Shown here one piece after another: positions 1,274-20,200 of a stretch of 64,000 nucleotides of DNA. Origin of the DNA: Camelus ferus (Eukaryota); NCBI RefSeq assembly GCF_009834535.1, contig NC_045696.1, forward strand, positions 496,001 to 560,000, written 5' to 3'. The notes beneath the pieces were generated by a model that was not told where the DNA came from, did no database searches, and saw nothing but the letters and a program-made list of their open reading frames with translations. A program made the position numbers and the translations under genes. Numbering within the stretch: the first letter of the stretch is position 1; each line of letters begins with the position of its first letter.

Positions 1274-1532
1274 GTGGCCCGTGGCGCTCTTAGCGACTGT
1301 GTCCTCGATGCGGCAGAGACACAGAAGGAGCTCCTGGGAGCCAGTGGGCTCATGCTGCTGCTTCCGCCCAAAGTGAAGAGCGAGGACATGGCAGAGGAAG
1401 ACGTGTACTGGCTGTCGGCACTGCTGCAGATCAAGCAGCTCCTGCAGGCCAAGCCCTTCCAGCCTGCGCTTCCGCTGGTGGTTCTTGTGCCCAGTCCGGG
1501 AGGGGCCGCCGTGGAGAAGGAAGGGGAAGATG
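1274..1532 (+). CDS. MCM3AP: MCM3AP coding exon (VARGALSD...EKEGEDG)
   Basis: ttccag|GTGGCC acceptor; GATG|gtttgt donor, phase 1. Confidence 0.93.
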
Positions 1533-4500
1533 GTTTGTGAAAGCTGCCCCGTTTATGGACCGGCATGTTTACTAAGTGGGTGGAGCCCAGGGTCTGAGAA
1601 AGTGAGGTGTCGGGAGTCTCGTGACAGCAGCCACTGCAGTGACGGGAGCTGGGCAGGGCAGGGTCAGGGCAGTGAGATGCCTCAGCGTGTGTACAGGCTT
1701 GCGAGCAGAAGATAGGTGACCTCCATCTGTTTCTCTTAAAGGTCTAATGCTACAGGATTTGGTTTCAGCTAAGCTGATTTCAGATTATAGTATTATCGAG
1801 ATCCCTGATTCCATTAATTTGCAAGGCACAACTAAGGTAAGATTTCATCTTTTTTTTTTTTTTTAAATGTTCGTTTTTTTAAATTGAAGTACAGTCAGTT
1901 ACAATGTGTCAATTTCTGGTGTACAGCAGTGTCCCAGGCATGCGTATACATACATATATTCGTTTTCATACTCTTTTTCGTTAAAGGTGTTACAAGATAC
2001 TGAACATAATTCCCTGTGCTGTACAGAAGAAACTTTTATTAAAATCTATTTTTATATATAGTAGCTAACATTTGTAAATCTCAAACTCCCAAATTTATCC
2101 TTTCCCACCTGCTCTCTCTCGTAACCATAAGATCGTTTACTATGTCTGTGAGTCGGTTTCTGTTTTGTAGAAGGTTTCATCATTTTTAAAGGTCCAACAA
2201 GGTATTTTAGTTTTTCCTCTTTTGCTTTATCTTGAATTTAGTGTATGTTACTGCTTGCATTTTTAATTTTATATTTTGATAGGTAACTTTCTAAAAACGT
2301 AAGCAGAAATCAAAATAAAAGATAAAATTTGCCCACAGTCCTGCTATCTGCAACAAATTAAATTGTTCATGTACATTATCTTTTAGTGGCTTTGTTGTTA
2401 CGGATTTAAAATACGACGGTTTTTGTCTTATATCTGAAGGTCAGATATGTAATTATTTTTGTAGGGTGATTGTTCTTGGAATACGAAGAAATTATGTTAT
2501 CAGAAGTTTTCTTTAAAAAAGGAAGTCTGTGCTGACAATTACATTTAGGGAAAGAAGTCCTGGGAATTAAAATAAAAGTCACTGAAAGAGGAAAGATAAC
2601 TACAGGGTGTGAGCAGCCAGGCACATAGCGAAGCTGTTGATCCTACTAAGAACGGGGAGATGTGGTTTCCCTTTCTGTTGTGGTGAAGGGGATGTGCAGG
2701 GCTGCTTTCCCTTACGTCCGCGGCCCTTCCGGGGGGATCCTGTAGGCCACACTCCTCGGGGATGGGGGAACGTGAGCCCCAGTTGGGTCCCCCCCCACCC
2801 CCATGTGGGTCTCTAAGGCTCTGGGAGACCAAAGGCAACTGCAGCAGACGCTTCTGCCCCGCTTCCTGGAGCGGTTGAGATGCTGGTGCTCCGGTGGCAC
2901 TGCTGTGGCAGCAGTGGGGTGGGGGGGGCACTCCTGGAAAACAGCATGAATTGTTCACCCAGATCTTTCCAACTGTCTCTGCTTCTCAGGTTTTGCAGGC
3001 TGTGCAATGGCTGGTCTCCCACTGCCCCTGTGCTCTTGACCTTTGCTGCCAGACCCTTGTTCAGTACGTGGAAGACGGGGTTAGTCGGGAGTTTAGTGGC
3101 CGGTTTTTCCACGACAGACGAGAGAGGCGGCAGGGCGGCCTGGCCTCGCAGGAGCCCAGCGTGGTCATCGAGCTGTTCAACAGTGTGCTGCACTTCCTGG
3201 CCTCTGTAGCGTCCTCCGAGCAGCTCTGTGACCTGTCCTGGCCTGTCCCCGAGTTTGCTGAGGCAGGGGGCAGCCAGCTGCTTCCTCACCTCCACTGGAA
3301 CACCCCGGAGCATCTGGCCTGGCTGAAGCAGGCCGTCCTTGGCTTCCAGCTTCCGCAGATGGACCTTCCGCCCCCCGGGGGTGCGTGCTTGTGCCGAGGG
3401 TTACCGGGTGGGAAGGAGTGGAGGGGCAGCCGAGTTCCCCATCTCCTTTCTTGCTGGAAAGACAGTCTGGTGGGTGTTGGGCACCAGCATGAGGTTTGTA
3501 GCCCCACCGCCACCACTGTGCACCCCGCCCACACTACACCGTTCTCACTGGCCTTGGGGTTCAGGGGCTGGGCTTGTGGAGTGGGAGCTGTTGGCCCTTC
3601 ACCACCCACCACAGTCTGTGGGTATCTGCTCAGCCTCGGCGGGGAGGTGGCAAGTGGTGTCAGGAAGAGTGCCGAATCCAAGGCCTGGAGTTTCTGAATT
3701 AACAGCAGTTCCCATCCTGTCTGCACCACAGGGTTTGGGAGCAAAAAGCATGGGGACGGGGCAGCGCTGTCCTCACGCTGCTGGCTCCGGCGGGGCCACG
3801 GCACTCGGTGCTGCCTTAACACTGGGTTTCCTTCTCCGTCAGAAGCTCGTTCTCTGGCTCTGGCTGTGCCCGAGTCAGGCCTTTGGGCTGTTCTGATGCA
3901 GACTCTGTGGATCCCTGTGCCGTGAGGAAGCTGCCCCTCCCCTTGCTGATGCTGTTAGGAGGGAACAGGGCTGTTCATGCTCACCTGGCACGGCATGTGG
4001 CCTTGGCAGGGCCATTCTCCTTCAGACTGCGTAAAACAGAGGCCTCGGGCATCTTTCAGAATTTTGAGGGGCAGTCTCCTATAGTTCTGACAGACATTTG
4101 TTAACTGAAGGAGCCCAAAGGGAAACAGACCACACCATGCACATCCTCGGCTGTGAGCTGGGTCAGGGCTCCCCAGTGCCTCTGGGACCAGACCTCCCTG
4201 GGTGCTCGGTCAAATACAGATTATTGGGTGCAACCACAGGACTGTGCAGTCAGAGCCTCTGGGACGGACCCTCTGTTGTGAATTCTGACCTGGGTGACTG
4301 TTTGCATCCCTTACCTGGATGGTAAGGGAGCGGGAGATGCTTTTCCTCAATAGCTGTAGTTTGTTGTATTCAAAGTTGAAGGCAAACTTCTCGATTTCAC
4401 AGTTGCTTTTTCCTAGGAAGATAGAGGGTGAAGAACATTTTACACAGGTTTCCACTTGTACTTTGGCCAAAGTGTGACTCACCAGGTGCTTTCTCTCCAG

Positions 4501-11033: not shown

Positions 11034-14000
11034 CCACTGGAATATCTAGTGAGGTCTTCCTCAGTTTCCAGAATGAAAGGCTGTTTCATCCTGTGTAATG
11101 TCTTTGATACTCTTACCTGTTGTCATGACCTCTTCTGACTGATGTCTGCCAACTCGTGTTTCTGTGTGTAACATTTATTTATTTATTTTTGAGTTATAGT
11201 CAGTTTACAGTGTTGTCAGTTTCTGGTGTACAGCACAATCCTTCAGTCATACATGAATATACATATATTCATTTTCAAATTCGTTTTCACTGCGAGCTAC
11301 TACAAGATACTGAATATATTTCCCTGTGCTATACAGTGTAAACTTGTTTATCTGTTTTATATATACCTGTCAGTATCTGCAAATCTTGAACTCCCAGTTT
11401 ATCCCTTCCCACCCCCCTCTCCCCCGGCAACCACAAGTCTGTATTCTATGTCTGTGAGTGTATCTGTTTTGTTTTGTTTTTTATATAAGTTCATTTGTCA
11501 TCTTATTTATTTATTTTTTTTTTAGATTCCACATATTAGCGATCTCATATGGTATTTTTCTTTTTCTTTCTGGCTTCACTTAGAATGACATTCTCCAGGG
11601 ACATCCATGTTGCTGCAAATGGCATTATGTTGTCATTTTTATGGCTGAGTAGTATTCCATTGTATAAATATACAATAACTTTTTGTCCAGTCATCTGTTG
11701 ATGGACATTTAGGTTGTTTCCATGTCTTGGCTATTGGAGATAGTGCTGCTATGAACATTGGGGTGCAGGTGTCTTTTTGAATTAGGGTTCCTTCTGGATA
11801 TATGCCCAGAAGTGGGATTGCTGGGTCATATGGTGTCTATTTTTAGTCTTTTGAGGAATCTCCATACTGTTCTCCATAATGGCTGCACTAAACTGCCTTC
11901 CTGCCAGCAGGGTAAGAGGGTTCCCTTTTCTCCACATTCTCTCCAGCATTTATCATTTGTCGACTTCTGAATGATGGTCATTCTGACTGGTGTGAGGTGA
12001 TACCTCATTGTAGTTTTATTTTGCACTTCTCTGATAATTAGTGATATTGAGCATTTTTTCATGTGCCTATTGGCCATTTGTATGTCTTCACTGGAGAATT
12101 GCTCATTTAGGTCTTCTACCCATTTTTGAATTGGGTTTGTTTTTTTCTTATTAAGTGGTATAAGCTGTTTATATATTCTGGAGATCAAGCCCTTGTCAGT
12201 CTCATCTTTTGCAAATATTTTCTCCCATTCTATAGGTTGTCTTTTTGTTTTGCTTATGGTTTCCTTTGCTGTGCAGAAGCTTGTAAAGTTTCATTAGGTC
12301 CCATTTGTTTATTCTTGCTTTTATTTCTTCTAGGAGAAAATTTTTGAGATGTATGTCAGATAATGTTTTGCCTATATTTTCCTCTAGGAGATTTATTGTA
12401 TCTTGTCTTATGTTTAAGTCTTTGATCCATTTTGAGTTTATTTTTGTGTATGGTGTGAGGGAGTATTCTAACTTCATTGATTTACATGCTGCTGTCCAGT
12501 TTTCCTAACACCATTTGCTGAAGAGACTGTCTTTATTCCATTGTATCTTCCTGCCTCCTTTGTCAAAGATGAATTGACCAGAAGTTTGTGAGTTCATTTC
12601 TGGGCTCGTGTATTCTGTTCCATTGATCAATATGTTTGTTTTTATACCAATACCATGCTGTTTTGATTACTGTAGCTCTGTAGTATTGTCTGAAGTCTGG
12701 GAGGGTTATTCCTCAAGCCTCTTTCTTCTTCCTCAGTAATGCTTTGGCAACTCTGGTCTTTTGTGGTTCCATATAAAGAAATTGTGATTTGATCTAGTTC
12801 TGTGAAATATGTCCTGGGTAATTTGATAGGGATCACATTAAATCTGTAGATTGTCTTGGGCATTTTAACAATATTGATTCTTCCAATCCAGGAGCATGGG
12901 ATATCTTTCCATTTTTTTAAGTCTTCTTTAATTTCCGTAATCTTTTGTAGTTCTGCATGTATAAGTCTTTCACTTTCTTGGTCAGAATTATTCCTAGTTA
13001 TTTTATTACTTTGGGTGCTATTTTAAAATGGATTGTTTCTTTGCTTTCTTTTCCTGTTGATTCATTGTTAGTGTATAGAAATGCAGCTGATTTTTATACA
13101 TCAATCTTGTATCCTGCTACCTTGCTGAATTTTTTTTTATTAGTTCTAGTAGTTTTTGCGTGGAGCTTTTAGGGTTTTCTATATATAATATCATATCATC
13201 TGCATATAGTGATAATTTCACCTCTTCTTTTCCAATTTAGATCCCTTTTATTTCTTTTTCTTGCCGGATTGCTGTGGCTAGGACTTCCAAGACTATGTTG
13301 AATAGAAATGGTGAGAGTGGACAACCTTGTCTTGTCCCAGATTTTAGTGGCAAGGTTTTCAGTTTTTCACTGTTGAGTACTATGCTGGCTGTAGGTTTGT
13401 CATAGATAGCTTTTATTATGTTGAGATATGTTCTCTCTATACCCACTTTGGTGAGGGTTTTTTAAATCATAAATGGGTGTTGAATTTTATCAGATGCTTT
13501 TTCTGCATCTATTGAGTTGATCATATGGTTTTTGTCCTTTCTCTTGTTGATGTGGTGTATTACATTGATAGATTTGCATGTGTTGAACCATCCCATGTTC
13601 CTGGGATGAACCCAACTTGATCATGGTGTATGATCTTTTTTATGTGCTGTTGGATTATGTTTGCTAATATTTTGTTGAGGATTTTTGCATCTGTGTTCAT
13701 CGGTGATATTGGTCTGTAATTTTCTTTTTTGGTAGTGTCTTTGTCTGATTTTGGTATCAGGGTGATGGTGGTTTCATAGAATGAGTTTCTGAGTACTCCC
13801 TCCTTTTCAGTCTTCTGGAAGAATTTGAGAAGGACTGGTATGATTTATTCTTTGTATGCTTGAAAGAATTCCCCAGTGAAGCCATTCGGTCCTGGACTTT
13901 TTGTTTGTAGGGAGGTGTTTTACTGCTAATTTGATTTCATTTCTAGTGATTGGTTTGTTCATGTGGTCAGTTTCTTCTTGATTTAGTCTTGGTGGACTGT

Positions 14001-14128
14001 ATGTTTCCAGAAACTTGTCCATTTCTTCTAGGTTATCCGTTTTGTTTTCATATAGTTGTTGATAGTATTCTCATATGATAATTTGTATTTCTGTGGTATT
14101 GGTTATAACTTCTTCATTTTCCTTTCTT

Positions 14129-14911
14129 TCTTTTTTTAAAAATAGACTATTCTTCTAGATCAGTTTCAGGTTCACAGCAGAACTGAGTTGAAAATACAGA
14201 GAGTTCACCCATAACCCTCCCTACCCACACATATGTACTGCCCTTCCCTCAATATCCCTCATCAGTGTGGCATATTTGGTACAGTTGATGAACCAACATG
14301 GGCACATTATTATCAACCAAAGTCCATAGTTTACATTAGGGTTCACTCTTGATGTTGTACATTCTATGGCTTTTGACAAATGCATAATGACATGTATCCA
14401 CTACTATAGTATCAAACAATAATTTCATTGCCCTAAAAATCCCTTGTGCCCCATCTGTTCATTCCTGCCTCCCTCCATCTCCCCAAACCCTTGGAAACCA
14501 CGATCTTTTTATTGTTTCTGTAGCTGTGCCTTTTCCAGAATGTCATTTGGCTGGAATTGTACAGTTTGTAGCCTTTCCAGACTGGCTTCTTTCATTTAGT
14601 AATATGTCTTTTAAGTTTCTTCCATGTCTTTCATGGCTTGCTAGATCTTTTTTTTTAACTGCACATATATTTTTAAATTTATATATATGTACTGTTCATT
14701 GTTTCTAAGAAACTTTAGAGCTTTAGCTTTTTAAACTTACATAGTTATCAAAGGAATAAAGCCAACCACAAAATAAGAATTAATTCAAAAAGATACACAC
14801 ACCCTATTAACAACTATTAATTATTAACTATTTATAATTGCCAAGATATGGAAGCATCCTAAGTGCACATCAATTGTTGAATAGATAATGAAGATGCAGA
14901 GTGTGTGTGTG

Positions 14912-14947
<36 letters not shown>

Positions 14948-17208
14948 TGGAATACAACTCACTCATAAAAAAGAAAGATATTTTGCCATTCGTGGCCCTT
15001 CATTCACTTTTTTTTTTCACTTCAAAAAGCAGAATTTTATAACTCACAGAGACATTTCCATTACATCAAAAACAACAAAATGTGTAGATATAAACTTAAA
15101 CAAGGAGGCTACCTATACTCCGAAAACGGAAATGACACAAAGAAATGGAAAGCTTTCTTGTGCTCTTGGATTGGAAGAATCAATACTATCAAAATGGCCA
15201 CACTACCCAAAGCAATCCACAGATCCAACACAACCCCCACCAAAATACTCACGACACTCCTTGCAGAACTAGAACGAACAATTCCAGAATTTATAAGGAA
15301 CCACAAAAGACCCCCAACAGCCAAAGCAATCTTATGTTGATCTCTTTTTTTCTCTTTCTTCTTTCTGTTCTCTTTTCTTGTGGTTTGATGACTTAGAGAA
15401 GGTCCTTCAACATTTGTTGTAAAGCTGGCTTGGTGGTGCTGAAATCTTGTAGCTTTTGTTTATCTGTGAAGCTTTTGATTTCTCCCTCAAGTCTGAAGGA
15501 GAGCCTTGCTGGACAGAGTGTTCTTGGCTGTAGGTTTCCCCCTTTCATCACTTTAAATATACCGTGCCACTCCCTTCTGGCCTGCAGAGTTTCTGCTGAA
15601 AACTCAGCTGATAACCTTGTGGGAGTTCCCTTGTATGTTGTTCGTTGCTTTTCTCTTGCTAATTTTAAATATTTTCTCCTTATCCTTAATTGTCAATTTG
15701 ATGACTGTGTGCTTTGGTGTGTTCCTCTTTGGGTTGATCCTGTGTGGAACTCTCTACGCGTCCTGGACTTGGGTGACTGTTACCTTTCCCAAGTTGGGGA
15801 ATTTTCCAGTGATTATCTCTCCAAAAATTTTCTCAGGTCCTTTCTCTCTCTCTTTTCTTCCTGGAACACCTATAATGTGAATATTAGTGTGCTTCATGTT
15901 GTCCCAGAGTTAACTTCATTTCTTTTTATTCTTTTTTCTTTTTTCTGTTCTGAAGTAGTGATTTCCACTAATCTGTCTTCTAGCTCACTGATCTGTTCTT
16001 CTGCTTCATTTAGTCTATTCTTGGTTCCTTCTGGTGTATTGTCCATTTCAGTGATTTTATTCTTCAACTCTGGGTATTCTTTTTATTTTCCAACTCTTTG
16101 CTAAAACTTTGTGCATCTATACTCCTCTTGAGTTCTCTGAACATCTTGGCCATCATTAAACTTTAAATCATTAAACTCTTTCTCAGATAAATTACCTATC
16201 TCCTGATCACTTATTTCTTCTTCTGGGATTTTATCTTGTGCCTTGGCCTGCGAGATATTCCTTTGCCACCTCATATTGTCTATCTTTCTGTGTATTTGTG
16301 GATTTCCTTCCACAGGCTTTGGGATTATTGTTTTCTTATTTCTAGTATCTGCCCCTGGTGGATGAGGCTGGACTAGAGGCTTATGCAGGTTTCCTGACAG
16401 GAGGAACCAGTGCCTGCCCACTGCTGGCTGAAGCTGGGTCCTGGGCCTCTGGTGGGTAGGGCCGTGTCTAGAGGCCTCTGTGGCTTGGGAAGTCTGCTGA
16501 TGGGTGGGGCTGTGTTCCCACCCTGTATGTTGTTTGGCCTGAGGCTTCCCTATAGGCTGTTGGATGGGGCTAGGTCTTGGTGCTGATGATCCAATCAAGA
16601 TGTCAGCCTCCAGGAAAGTTCATGTAGATTAACACTCCTGGAATGTCCACCACCAGCTTTTATGTCCCCTGAGTGAGCTGCAGCCATCCCCCACATCCCC
16701 AAGAGACCCTCCAAATCCAGCAGGCAGGCCTGGCTCAGGTTCCTATGAAATCACTGCCTCTGCCCTTCGACCCGGTGCACGTGAGTTTCTGTGTATGTTT
16801 CCCAAGCAAATGGAGTCTCCATTTCCCCCAGTCCCGTGAGGCTCCCAGAGCCAAGCCCCCCTGGCCTTCAAAACCAGATGTCCTGGGGGTCTCCTCTTCC
16901 CAATGCTGGAACCTGGGTTTGGGAGCCTGACGTGGAGCTTACAGCTCTCCTGTGGAAGGGCCTCTGCGACTTAACAAATCTTCAGCTTGTGGCTTGCCCA
17001 CCTGAGGGGTATGTGGCCCAATTATATCGCAAGCATGCCCCTCCTACCGTCCTGCTGTGGTTCCCTTTTTGTTTCCAGTTGCAAAGATGTTTTTTGCTAG
17101 GTTCCAGTCTTTTTTCGATGGTTGTTTAGCATTCAGTTGTGGTTTTGTTGTAGTCACAAGGAGAGGCAAGCTCGTCATCCTACCACTCCAGCATCTTGAC
17201 TGGAAATC
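14129..17208 (-). mobile_element. Nested composite retro-insertion (L1 5'UTR+ORF1 / antisense L1 fragments / L1MC-like 3' end) interrupting the host L1 ORF2
   Basis: Exact 14-bp direct repeat CATTTTCCTTTCTT at 14115-14128 and 17209-17222; host ORF2 resumes collinearly after it. Confidence 0.85.
14900..14946 (+). repeat. (GT)n microsatellite
   Basis: Interrupted GT dinucleotide run inside an L1 fragment. Confidence 0.9.
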
Positions 17209-20200
17209 CATTTTCCTTTCTTATTTTGTTTATTTTTGCTCTCTCTTTTCTCTTCCTTGTGGGCTTGGCCAGAGGTTTCTCAATTTTGTTTACTCTTTCA
17301 AAAAACCAGCTCTTGGTTTGATTGATTTTTTTTCTATTGTTTTTTTTATTTTCTATTTTACTTATTTCCTCCCTGATCTTTATTATTTCCTTCCTTCTGC
17401 TGACGACTTTTTTTTTTTTTTTTTTGGCTCCTCTTTTTCTAATTCTTTTAGCTGGTAGGTTAGATTGTTTATTTGAGATTGTTCTTTTTTGAGGAAAGCG
17501 TGTATCACTATAAACTTCCTTAGCACTGCCTTTGCTGCACCCCATAGACTCTGTGTGGTTGTGTTTTCATTGTCATTTGTCTCAAAGTATTTTTTAATTT
17601 CTTTGATTTCATCATTGACTCATTGGTTTCTAGTAGCATGTTGTTTAATCTCCATGCTGTCATTTTTTTCTCCTTTGTTTTTCTATACTTGATTTCTAGT
17701 TTCATGGCATTGTGGTCAGAAAAAATGAAATAATTTCTATCTTCTTAAAATTGTTGAGGCTTCTCTTGTGCCTGACTACATGATCTATCCTAGAAAATAT
17801 TCCATGTGCACTTGAAAAAAATGTATATTCTATTGTGGGAGGATGTAGTGTTATGAAAATATCAACCAAATCTAATTGTTCTATTGTATCATTTAATTTC
17901 TCTGTTGCCTTATTAATTTTCTGTCTGGAAGATCTGCCCAGCGATGTTAATGGGGTGTTAAAAGTCTCCTACAACGATTGTATTCCCATCAATTTCTCCC
18001 TTTATATCTGTTAGTATTTGCTTTATGTATTTGTTTAGCTGCTCCTATATTGGGTGCATATGTTAATGAGTGTAATATCCTCATCTTGTATTGCTACTTT
18101 AATCATTATAAAGGCCTTCTTTCTCTTTCTTTATGGCCTATATTTTAAAGTCTATTTTGTCTGAAATCAGTATTGCTACTCCTGCTTTCTTGTCATTTCC
18201 ATTTGTGTGGAATATCTTTTTCCATCATCTTACTGTAAATCTGTGTGTGTCCTTCTTCCTAAAGTGGGTTTCTTGTATGCAGCACATTGTAGGTTCTTGT
18301 TTTATTATCCAGTCTTCCACTCTATGTCTTTTGATTGGAGCATTTAGTTCATTGGCATTTACAATAACTATTGATAGATGTGTGTTAATTTTCATTTTGA
18401 ACTTGGTTTTGCAGTTGATTTGGTATTTCTTCTTTGTTCCTTTCAGTTTTCTTTTTGTGGCTTCATAATTTTCCTTTGTATTATCTTGGTTTCTTTTTAG
18501 TGCTTGTAACTGTATTGTAAGCTTTCGGTTTGTGGTTACCCTGTTTTGCACATATATTAACCCATTACTATATCTGTTTGTTTTAAACAGATAGTAATAT
18601 AAACTCAAACCCATCCTACCAAGAACAAAAAGAAAAAAGAAAAAAAGAAAAGAAAAAACTCCATTATATTTTCTTGCTCCCCTCTCCCACCCTTAATGAT
18701 TTCGATGTCCTCTTTTACAATTTCGTGTTTATTCTGTTGTAATTCATTGTAGCAATCACCTTTCCAATCATGGTTTTCTCCTTTTTGTAGCATCCTGCTT
18801 CTTTTCTGTTTAGAGTAGAACTTTCAATATTTCTTTTAGCATAGGTTTAGTGTTGCTAAATTCTTCTAGTTTTTCTTTGTGAAATTCTTTATCTCTCCTT
18901 CTATTCTAAAGGATAGCCTTGCTGGATAAAGTATCCTAGGTTGCATCTTTTTTTTCATTCAGGACTTTGAATATATCTTGCCACTCCCTTCTGGCCTGCA
19001 GTATTTGTGTAGAGAAATCACCTGAAAGCCTTATGAGGGTTCTTTTGTAATTAAGTCTTTGTTTTTCTCTTGCTGCCTTTAGAATCATTTCTTTATCCTT
19101 AACTCTGGCAATCCTGATTATAATATGTCTTGGTGTGGGTTTGTTTGGGTTCTTCTTGTTTGGGACCCTCTGTGATTCCTGTACATGGATATCTGATTCC
19201 TTCTTTAGGTTTGGGAAGTTTTCAGTCATGATTTCTTCAAATACCTTTTCAATCCCGTTTGGCTCTTTCTTATCCTTTTGGGACCCCTATTATGCCTAGG
19301 TTGGCACGCTTTATATTACCCCATAGGTCCCTTATATTGTTTTCATTGGTTTTTGTTTTCCTCTCAGCTGTTCTGATTGGGTGATTTTGTTGTCCTGTCT
19401 TCTAAGTCACTTATTTGTTCCTCTGCATTATCTAGCCTACTTTTTACAGCCTTTAGCTCAGCTCTCATCTCAGCAAATAAGTTTTCCAATTTTAATTGGC
19501 TACTCTTTATAGTTTCAATTTCCTTTTTGACATATTCTCTGTCTCTATATACAGTCTCTTTTAGTTCCTTCAGTATTTTGATCACTGCTTTTTTGAAATC
19601 ATGATCTAGTAGACTATCAAAGTCTGTTTTATTGATTATTCTTTCAGGGAATTTCTCTTGTTCTTTTAATTGGGAGTGGCTCCTCTGCTTCTTCATTTTA
19701 CTTACATCTCTCTGATACTATGGCTTATGGAGTATCAGTTATCTACTGTGGTCATTAAGGGGTTTATTTATTTATTTATCTAAAGTGGATGCAGAAATAA
19801 AACAAAAAATAAATTTAAAGAAAAAAATATTTAAAAACAATATAATCTATAACAGAAGAACAAATTGAAGAGACATAAAAATCGAGTTGAGAGCAAATTT
19901 TATAAAACTTAAAGGAGGAAAAAAACGTGAAAACAGTGTAAACAGTAACAGAAGAACAAAACAAAAATAAAGATCAAATTGAGACAAAAGAATAATAAAA
20001 ATATTTTAAAAAGAAAAATTTAAAGGGATTAAAAAATAGAAAAAAAATTTTAAAAGTAAAAATTTAAAAAGTTAAAGAAAAAAGAAAAGAAAAAAAGTGG
20101 ATGTATTCCCATGGAGATTGTTCACTCTTAATCATTTTGTTGAGGGGTCCTTCTTAAGTTTGGGTGGTTGCCAAGTCTTCCTTCCCTGCCTTTTGCCTGT

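Follow-up and report, generated by a model that had tools for sequence, protein, structure and literature searches.

An L1-nested insert of Camelus ferus is very probably one copy of a HAL1-type family with antisense ORF2 modules in its 3' half

Results

The insert and its relatives in the genome

Within the window (the whole analyzed stretch of 64,000 nucleotides of the Camelus ferus genome, C1:496001-560000, where C1 is contig NC_045696.1), an older L1 retrotransposon is interrupted by a 3080-bp insert, which lies between target-site duplications (TSDs) at 14129-17208 and has its sense on the minus strand. This insert is very probably a fixed and inactive copy from a lineage-specific family of the HAL1 type, which has a unit of ~3.06 kb and would depend on the L1 open reading frame 2 protein (ORF2p). 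Read in its own sense, the element consists of an L1-type 5' untranslated region (UTR), an open reading frame 1 (ORF1), two pieces of L1 ORF2 in antisense orientation (fragments B and A), and an L1-type 3' end (the 3' module). The original prediction, made from the letters of the window, had described the insert as a single chimeric retroposed RNA that, if multi-copy, would be an undescribed, ORF1-only, non-autonomous composite element.

The same 2.09-Gb genome was searched with the whole insert, and the best 40 of 11900 candidates were scored, which gave 29 near-full-length places on many contigs. These 29 other copies, the ones most like the window insert, and the window copy itself make up the 30 copies sampled in this study. 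All 29 aligned to the insert as one end-to-end high-scoring segment pair (HSP), with identities of 84.4-87.7%, and every internal junction is therefore shared. When a 281-nt probe over junction 15335/15336 was used, all 40 scored matches (the best 40 of 2240 candidates) spanned the probe at 89-98% identity. A 27-nt motif at the junction of the ORF1 module and fragment B, searched with at most 3 mismatches, gave 346 + 350 = 696 matches in the genome, while the reversed control had none (0 + 0). The element was 3020-3130 bp long across the 30 copies, and its 5' start fell within 12 nt of the same nucleotide in 27 of the 29 other copies.

Exact flanking repeats of 11-18 bp were found at 13 of the 29 other copies, repeats of only 8-9 bp at five, and none at 11; a stricter positional rule for TSDs was passed by 11/29. 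The TSDs were all mutually different and had an A-rich start in 11 of 14 cases (window copy included), and the flanks of different loci were unrelated except for one L1-to-L1 match. Among eight further best matches to the 3' module, five had the same architecture upstream, three were 5'-truncated, and none had sense ORF2 upstream. With these hallmarks, the insert has been amplified as a defined unit by L1-type retroposition. By their structure, with a 5' UTR and ORF1 and no sense ORF2, the family members correspond to the HAL1 type. Other copies with the same junctions and different TSDs, which the original prediction had suggested looking for, thus exist (29 copies, 13 of them with TSDs of at least 11 bp), and its conditional description of an ORF1-only, non-autonomous composite holds for them.

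A one-off chimeric retrocopy, in which a transcript from an L1 promoter would have continued through a rearranged source locus and been inserted a single time, is highly improbable. A single retroposition would be compatible with the TSD as well as with the 5' terminus and the A tail, but 29/29 other full-length copies, located on other contigs, have the same junctions, and the junction motif recurs 696 times; these copies are unlikely to be assembly duplicates, given that they differ in flanks and TSDs. The same copies and motifs rule out a single insertion with junctions found elsewhere only at one source locus. Neither misassembly nor segmental duplication would account for an identical structure within unrelated flanks at 29 other loci, and both were rejected. 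From the original interpretation, one retroposed RNA with an L1 5' start and an A tail, presumably moved in trans by the L1 machinery, is retained, whereas the chimera at the source locus of the window copy is given up. The least credible alternative is a series of independent insertions, by which the insert would have gained its antisense ORF2 pieces and its 3' end in separate events once it was in place: internal A runs at two module borders would agree with it, but the same pieces with the same junctions are present in 29/29 other copies, the antisense pieces lack 3' ends or poly(A) of their own in their own orientation, and divergence is even across the modules.

Insertion site and host L1

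The insert is flanked by an exact 14-bp TSD, CATTTTCCTTTCTT, which occurs at just two places in the 64-kb window; among 100 dinucleotide-preserving shuffles of the window, none contained two matches to it. In a tblastn search with the ORF2 of a young L1 from the same genome, the host ORF2 on the minus strand was split at a single point, at about codon 396. One HSP covered aa 1-397 at 18395-17207 and the other aa 389-1265 at 14139-11525, the few codons that overlap between them being explained by the duplicated target. On the plus strand, the empty site reads ...CCTTTCTT/ATTTTG, which places the nick at TCTT/AT. The L1 endonuclease prefers TTTT/AA, and the site used here is close to that. The exact 14-bp duplication, the single cut in the host ORF2, and the endonuclease-like target had all been read correctly in the original prediction.

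The features of the insertion site are as follows.
11525-19705, minus strand: host L1, interrupted by the insert; ORF1 at 19705-18813 and ORF2 at 18395-17207 plus 14139-11525 (tblastn with young-L1 ORF1 and ORF2)
14115-14128: TSD copy adjoining the A tail of the element; exact, found only twice in the window, shuffle control as above
17209-17222: TSD copy adjoining the 5' end of the element; exact, found only twice in the window, shuffle control as above

The host L1 is a near-full-length, decayed element of the resident lineage, in which ORF1 and the entire ORF2 are still recognizable. Its amino acid identity to the young autonomous lineage was 58-81% by tblastn, which assigns the two to the same lineage. 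Because the insert is nested in it, the host L1 is the older of the two. For the region 13629-17708, 20 sequencing runs from three organisms contained 0.41-0.48 of the sampled words, a share that is not taken as evidence on the presence of the insertion in them.

Anatomy of the insert

In the minus-strand reading, the insert starts with GATTTCCAGTCAAGATGCTGGAGT at 17208 and closes with an L1-like 3' end and a short A run (AAAAAAAGA) adjoining the TSD. Its modules are listed in the order of the element.
16275-17208, minus strand: L1-type 5' UTR with a putative internal promoter, 934 nt; begins at the common 5' terminus of the family
15393-16274, minus strand: ORF1 of the L1 ORF1p type, broken in the window copy; ATG at 16274, stop at 15393-15395 (Pfam, tblastn)
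15331-15365, minus strand: junction of the ORF1 module and fragment B, with a 12-nt linker and an A/GA-rich tract just upstream, the length of which is very variable in the 30-copy alignment
15113-15334, plus strand (antisense in the element): fragment B, L1 ORF2 aa 787-860 (tblastn with young-L1 ORF2; phmmer)
15008-15017, minus strand: internal A10 run (T10 on the plus strand) at the border of fragments B and A; ~6-17 A in other copies
14780-15012, plus strand (antisense in the element): fragment A, L1 ORF2 aa 1177-1240 (tblastn with young-L1 ORF2)
14661-14739, minus strand: spacer conserved across the family (30-copy alignment; identity of 0.915 among the other copies), of unproven origin, ending in a variable A run at the 3'-module border
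14129-14660, minus strand: L1-type 3' end module, read from the sequence as an ORF2 C-terminus remnant plus 3' UTR, with an A-rich tail at 14129-14137

The 5' UTR of the insert has a GC content of 0.53 and an observed/expected CpG ratio of 0.17. The motif AAGATGG was found in the first 30 nt of 24/30 copies and is mutated in the window copy; at this position near the 5' end of the family, we take it to resemble the YY1 box of the human L1 5' end. At the other end, AATAAA or ATTAAA was present in the last 45 nt of 23/30 copies and has been lost from the window copy. The plus-strand translation of fragment B matched human ORF2p at aa 789-861 with an E value of 3.4e-17 (phmmer; PDB chains 8sxt_A and others), and in other copies this fragment reaches to aa 760 of ORF2. 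Fragment A matched ORF2 at aa 1177-1212 and aa 1219-1240 by tblastn and is interrupted by a (GT)23 tract. By phmmer and tblastn, sense ORF2 is absent from the insert, and its similarity to ORF2 is confined to the two antisense pieces. The L1 5' terminus, the 5' UTR, and the ORF1 beginning at the ATG at 16274 were thus recovered as first described, and the two antisense ORF2 fragments could be placed precisely. As for the proposed L1MC-like 3' end, an L1-like end with a short A tail stands.

The GT tract was identified by TRF as a (GT)23 microsatellite at 14901-14946, within antisense fragment A. Runs of (AC) with at least six units were present in the same region of fragment A in 7/30 copies. 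The family appears to carry a proto-microsatellite in fragment A that was expanded independently in some copies.

Coding history of ORF1

In the Pfam search, ORF1 matched Tnp_22_dsRBD with an E value of 6.6e-26, and Transposase_22 and Tnp_22_trimer gave weak matches below the cut-off. Compared by tblastn with the ORF1 of a young resident L1, it showed 39.5% amino acid identity (306 aa, aa 4-300, E 1e-52). The window copy carries seven frameshifting indels and two in-frame stops relative to the family frame. The family frame, taken from the majority-occupied columns of the alignment, consists of 297 open codons followed by a stop that is common to 29/30 copies. Premature stops were found in 34 codon columns, 23 of which were private to one copy, with seven shared by two copies, two by three, one by five, and one by seven. 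The open majority frame and the mostly private stops suggest that ORF1 was open in the founder.

The three codon positions did not differ in diversity (0.096, 0.105, and 0.100), which is expected when inserted copies decay neutrally. Variants present in at least three copies, which likely arose in active lineages, comprised 33 synonymous and 43 non-synonymous changes, compared with 128 and 371 among the singletons (Fisher p = 0.002). This synonymous enrichment of the shared variants gives modest evidence of coding constraint on ORF1 during the activity of the family.

Classification and proposed mobilization in trans

From the missing ORF2 and the presence of autonomous L1 in the genome, we infer that ORF2p was supplied in trans. 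An autonomous L1 lineage is present: the best 150 Transposase_22 matches in the genome all scored at least 104 bits, many of them with open frames of 300-330 aa, and in one of three fetched young L1 copies, ORF1 (300 aa) and ORF2 (1265 aa) were both open. L1 may have been recently active in the Camelus ferus genome.

In the proposed mechanism, the element would be transcribed by Pol II from the internal promoter of its 5' UTR, and the transcript would be polyadenylated at the 3' module. ORF1p translated from the element RNA would then coat its own RNA. ORF2p of an autonomous L1, with its endonuclease and reverse transcriptase (RT), would act in trans by nicking a TTTT/AA-like site (here TCTT/AT) and would copy the element RNA by target-primed reverse transcription.

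Related cases are described in parts of the literature. HAL1 encodes ORF1p only and arose several times, according to a passage of PMC5753468, and 3'-truncated, ORF1-containing L1 RNAs may retrotranspose in the manner of HAL1, according to an excerpt of PMC4859970. For rat RNHAL1, a portion of PMC2241872 gives ~7500 copies and proposes that binding of ORF1p may make its RNA a superior L1 template. In an experimental setting, an ORF1-containing reporter RNA (ORF1mneoI) was moved by ORF2p in trans and required functional ORF1p, as stated in a section of PMC11260458, which also mentions SVA elements.

Candidate parents of the modules were sought within the genome. The 12 best Transposase_22 loci of the 150 scored were rejected as the parent of ORF1, as they belong to a different, younger L1 lineage; they matched the family ORF1 at ~70% nucleotide identity and in its C-terminal half only. 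A donor lineage for the 3' module was not found among its eight best matches, none of which had sense ORF2 upstream, and the young-L1 3' end gave weak, patchy matches in only 7/30 copies. With ~40% identity to the resident ORF1, this ORF1 lineage could conceivably parasitize a distant L1 lineage.

Several points weigh against reading the insert as a copy of a HAL1-type family moved by L1. The 30 copies were chosen as the closest to the window copy and may therefore represent one subfamily. None of these 30 full-length copies has an intact ORF1, and their longest sense open reading frames are 57-259 aa. The same was seen more widely, in the 149 other best matches to the C-terminal 99 aa of ORF1: their frames were mostly 92-264 aa, and only three of the 149 were open for at least 290 aa, each of these with a stop inside the match. 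With no intact ORF1 seen, expression of ORF1p is therefore deduced from the family frame only. The synonymous excess among shared variants is modest in size, and recurrent CpG changes could have enlarged it. Finally, the family ORF1 is only 39.5% identical to that of the resident L1, and neither an autonomous parent nor an autonomous partner was found among the L1 loci compared.

Age and evenness of divergence

Mean pairwise identity among the 29 other copies was 0.871 in the 5' UTR, 0.900 in ORF1, 0.909 in fragment B, 0.903 in the spacer between fragments B and A, 0.885 in fragment A, 0.915 in the spacer between fragment A and the 3' module, and 0.887 in the 3' module; it was 0.818 in the short tract after ORF1. 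Divergence is thus even over the modules, and the composite was therefore formed in the founder, before amplification. All parts of the element have aged together since each insertion. An older repeat inside a younger element, as had been proposed at first, does not describe these copies, in which identity is even over the modules (0.82-0.92).

The pairwise divergence of ~11% corresponds to ~5-6% per copy. With an assumed rate of 2.2-2.7e-9 substitutions/site/year, the age of the family would be roughly of the order of 20-30 million years, a figure that CpG decay inflates. The ~11% seen among these copies is far below the divergence of mammal-wide HAL1, and this half-L1 family looks the younger of the two.

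One group of copies departs from this general picture. Over a shared tract of ~400 bp, the window copy and three other copies on C1 have identities of 96-100%, whereas the rest of these elements is ~85-93% identical. The tract lies at 15309-15708 of the window (1501-1900 in element sense), and the partners are located at C1:~330 kb (L002/L010), ~229 kb (L003), and ~2.10 Mb (L004). All four tract-sharing copies are thus in the first 2.1 Mb of the window's contig, and their flanks are unrelated. A fifth nearby place, C1:1896970, was also high-scoring in the search for matches to the ORF1 C-terminus. The shared tract looks like the result of ectopic gene conversion between dispersed copies near the chromosome end. 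In addition, one other copy (L029) carries a 50-nt insertion in the spacer between fragment A and the 3' module (~2490 in element sense), which is flanked by the repeat AAAGCTAAAGCTCT and probably arose by duplication on the spot.

Origin of the 3' half

In the 30-copy alignment, the A/GA-rich tract before the linker and fragment B was very variable in length (~8-35 nt), and the A run between fragments B and A was ~6-17 nt. A further variable A run stands at the start of the 3' module and may be part of the ORF2 remnant. By tblastn, both fragments are in inverted orientation, and one inverted block would have them in a different order.

On the basis of this arrangement, we tentatively favor, with confidence approaching an even balance, a stepwise origin of the founder by 3' transduction. 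The founder would have been an ORF1-only, prematurely polyadenylated L1 RNA, to which successive read-through would have added flanking debris of old L1 elements, first fragment B and then fragment A; the last addition would have been an L1 3' end carrying a good poly(A) signal. Against serial transduction, it must be said that the evidence for it consists solely of the A runs at two module borders, and slippage varies the lengths of such runs anyway.

A one-step origin is plausible, if somewhat more doubtful. In this case, a single read-through into rearranged old-L1 debris, or RT template switching or twin priming, would have produced the 3' half at once. A single read-through is the simpler history, and it may be seen as the idea of the original prediction moved back to the founder. 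The end of fragment A (ORF2 aa ~1234-1240) is also near the apparent start of the 3' module, which is the geometry of a twin-primed inversion. However, the inverted duplication between fragment A and the 3'-module start that was looked for under twin priming was not found in the 30 copies, two of which gave low-complexity hits only, and fragment B breaks the pattern. The order of fragments B and A, which differs from a single inverted block, and the variable A runs at both borders also argue against a one-step origin.

A function of the antisense ORF2 modules was considered as well. The antisense pieces might pair with the ORF2 of autonomous L1 mRNA and so tether the half-L1 RNA to the site of ORF2p synthesis, where it would reach nascent ORF2p, or they might silence the partner. 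Both pieces are present in all 30 copies, and fragment B, with an identity of 0.909, is the best conserved of the modules, but conservation among dead copies reflects neutral decay rather than selection, and the pieces are only 71-74% complementary to resident L1 lineages. We consider such a function improbable; if true, it would be a way around the cis-preference of L1 that is undescribed for HAL1.

Composition of the window

For mammalian DNA rich in repeats, the window has an unusual base composition, with a G+C content of 50.7% and, on the plus strand, clearly more T (18046) than A (13495). Such a surplus of T would be in line with many A-rich retroelements on the minus strand, and the high G+C content may reflect the place of the window, ~0.5 Mb from a contig end. 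The Rfam scan of the window gave no match, and a comparison with a protein atlas pointed to Chordata and to no narrower clade.

Discussion

The insert is a HAL1-type element, of a kind already known in mammals, and is unusual only in its modular 3' half. HAL1 ('half-L1') elements are non-autonomous L1 derivatives that were reportedly treated by Smit in 1999 and by Bao and Jurka in 2010. The HAL1 class and this family have in common the L1 5' UTR with ORF1 only, the lack of ORF2, and dispersed copies with TSDs and A tails, and the class has originated repeatedly in mammals, as far as passages of PMC5753468 and PMC4859970 describe it. The term "undescribed" in the original prediction therefore does not apply to the kind of element, since ORF1-only L1 derivatives form the known HAL1 class in excerpts of PMC5753468, PMC2241872, and PMC3342881. 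Against the HAL1 class, which is known here by description, the difference lies in the 3' half, where this family combines an L1-type 3' end with two ORF2 fragments in antisense orientation. In passages around HAL1 terms, no description of antisense ORF2 modules in a HAL1 was found, which is weak evidence of absence.

Rat RNHAL1 resembles this family in being an L1 derivative that has only ORF1 and numbers thousands of copies (a portion of PMC2241872). In comparison with it, the ORF1 of the present family stands out by its 39.5% identity to the resident L1 ORF1 and by the fact that no intact copy was seen. Named HAL1 families appear in several other mammals: the bat families HAL1-1A_ML, HAL1-1B_ML, and HAL1-3_ML are among the top repeat clusters in Table 3, the part seen of PMC3342881, and excerpts of further papers name HAL1 families for guinea pig and marmoset (PMC3183009), pig (PMC6501411), and rat (PMC8535693), as well as HAL1 in the annotation of the dog genome (PMC13756887). 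The bat, guinea-pig, marmoset, and pig families, which are known here by name alone, are lineage-specific like the family described in this study and rank with the most abundant repeats of their genomes.

Another point of comparison is SVA of hominids, a composite, Pol II-transcribed, non-autonomous element that is moved by ORF2p in trans. Like this family, SVA contains antisense pieces of other retroelements, and it grows by read-through transduction, comparable to L1 3' transduction and to what is proposed here. Unlike this family, SVA has neither ORF1 nor an L1 promoter, whereas the modules here are L1-derived.

Since all copies examined are dead and the kind of element is known, the value of these results lies in annotation and in the evolutionary history of L1 and HAL1 rather than in a new mechanism. 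For annotation, the insert should be masked as one unit and not as five L1 scraps in mixed orientation. Its 3' half, a set of modules bordered by A runs, may provide a readable record of assembly by read-through transduction, and the family is one more example of ORF1-only L1 parasites, which have arisen repeatedly and independently.

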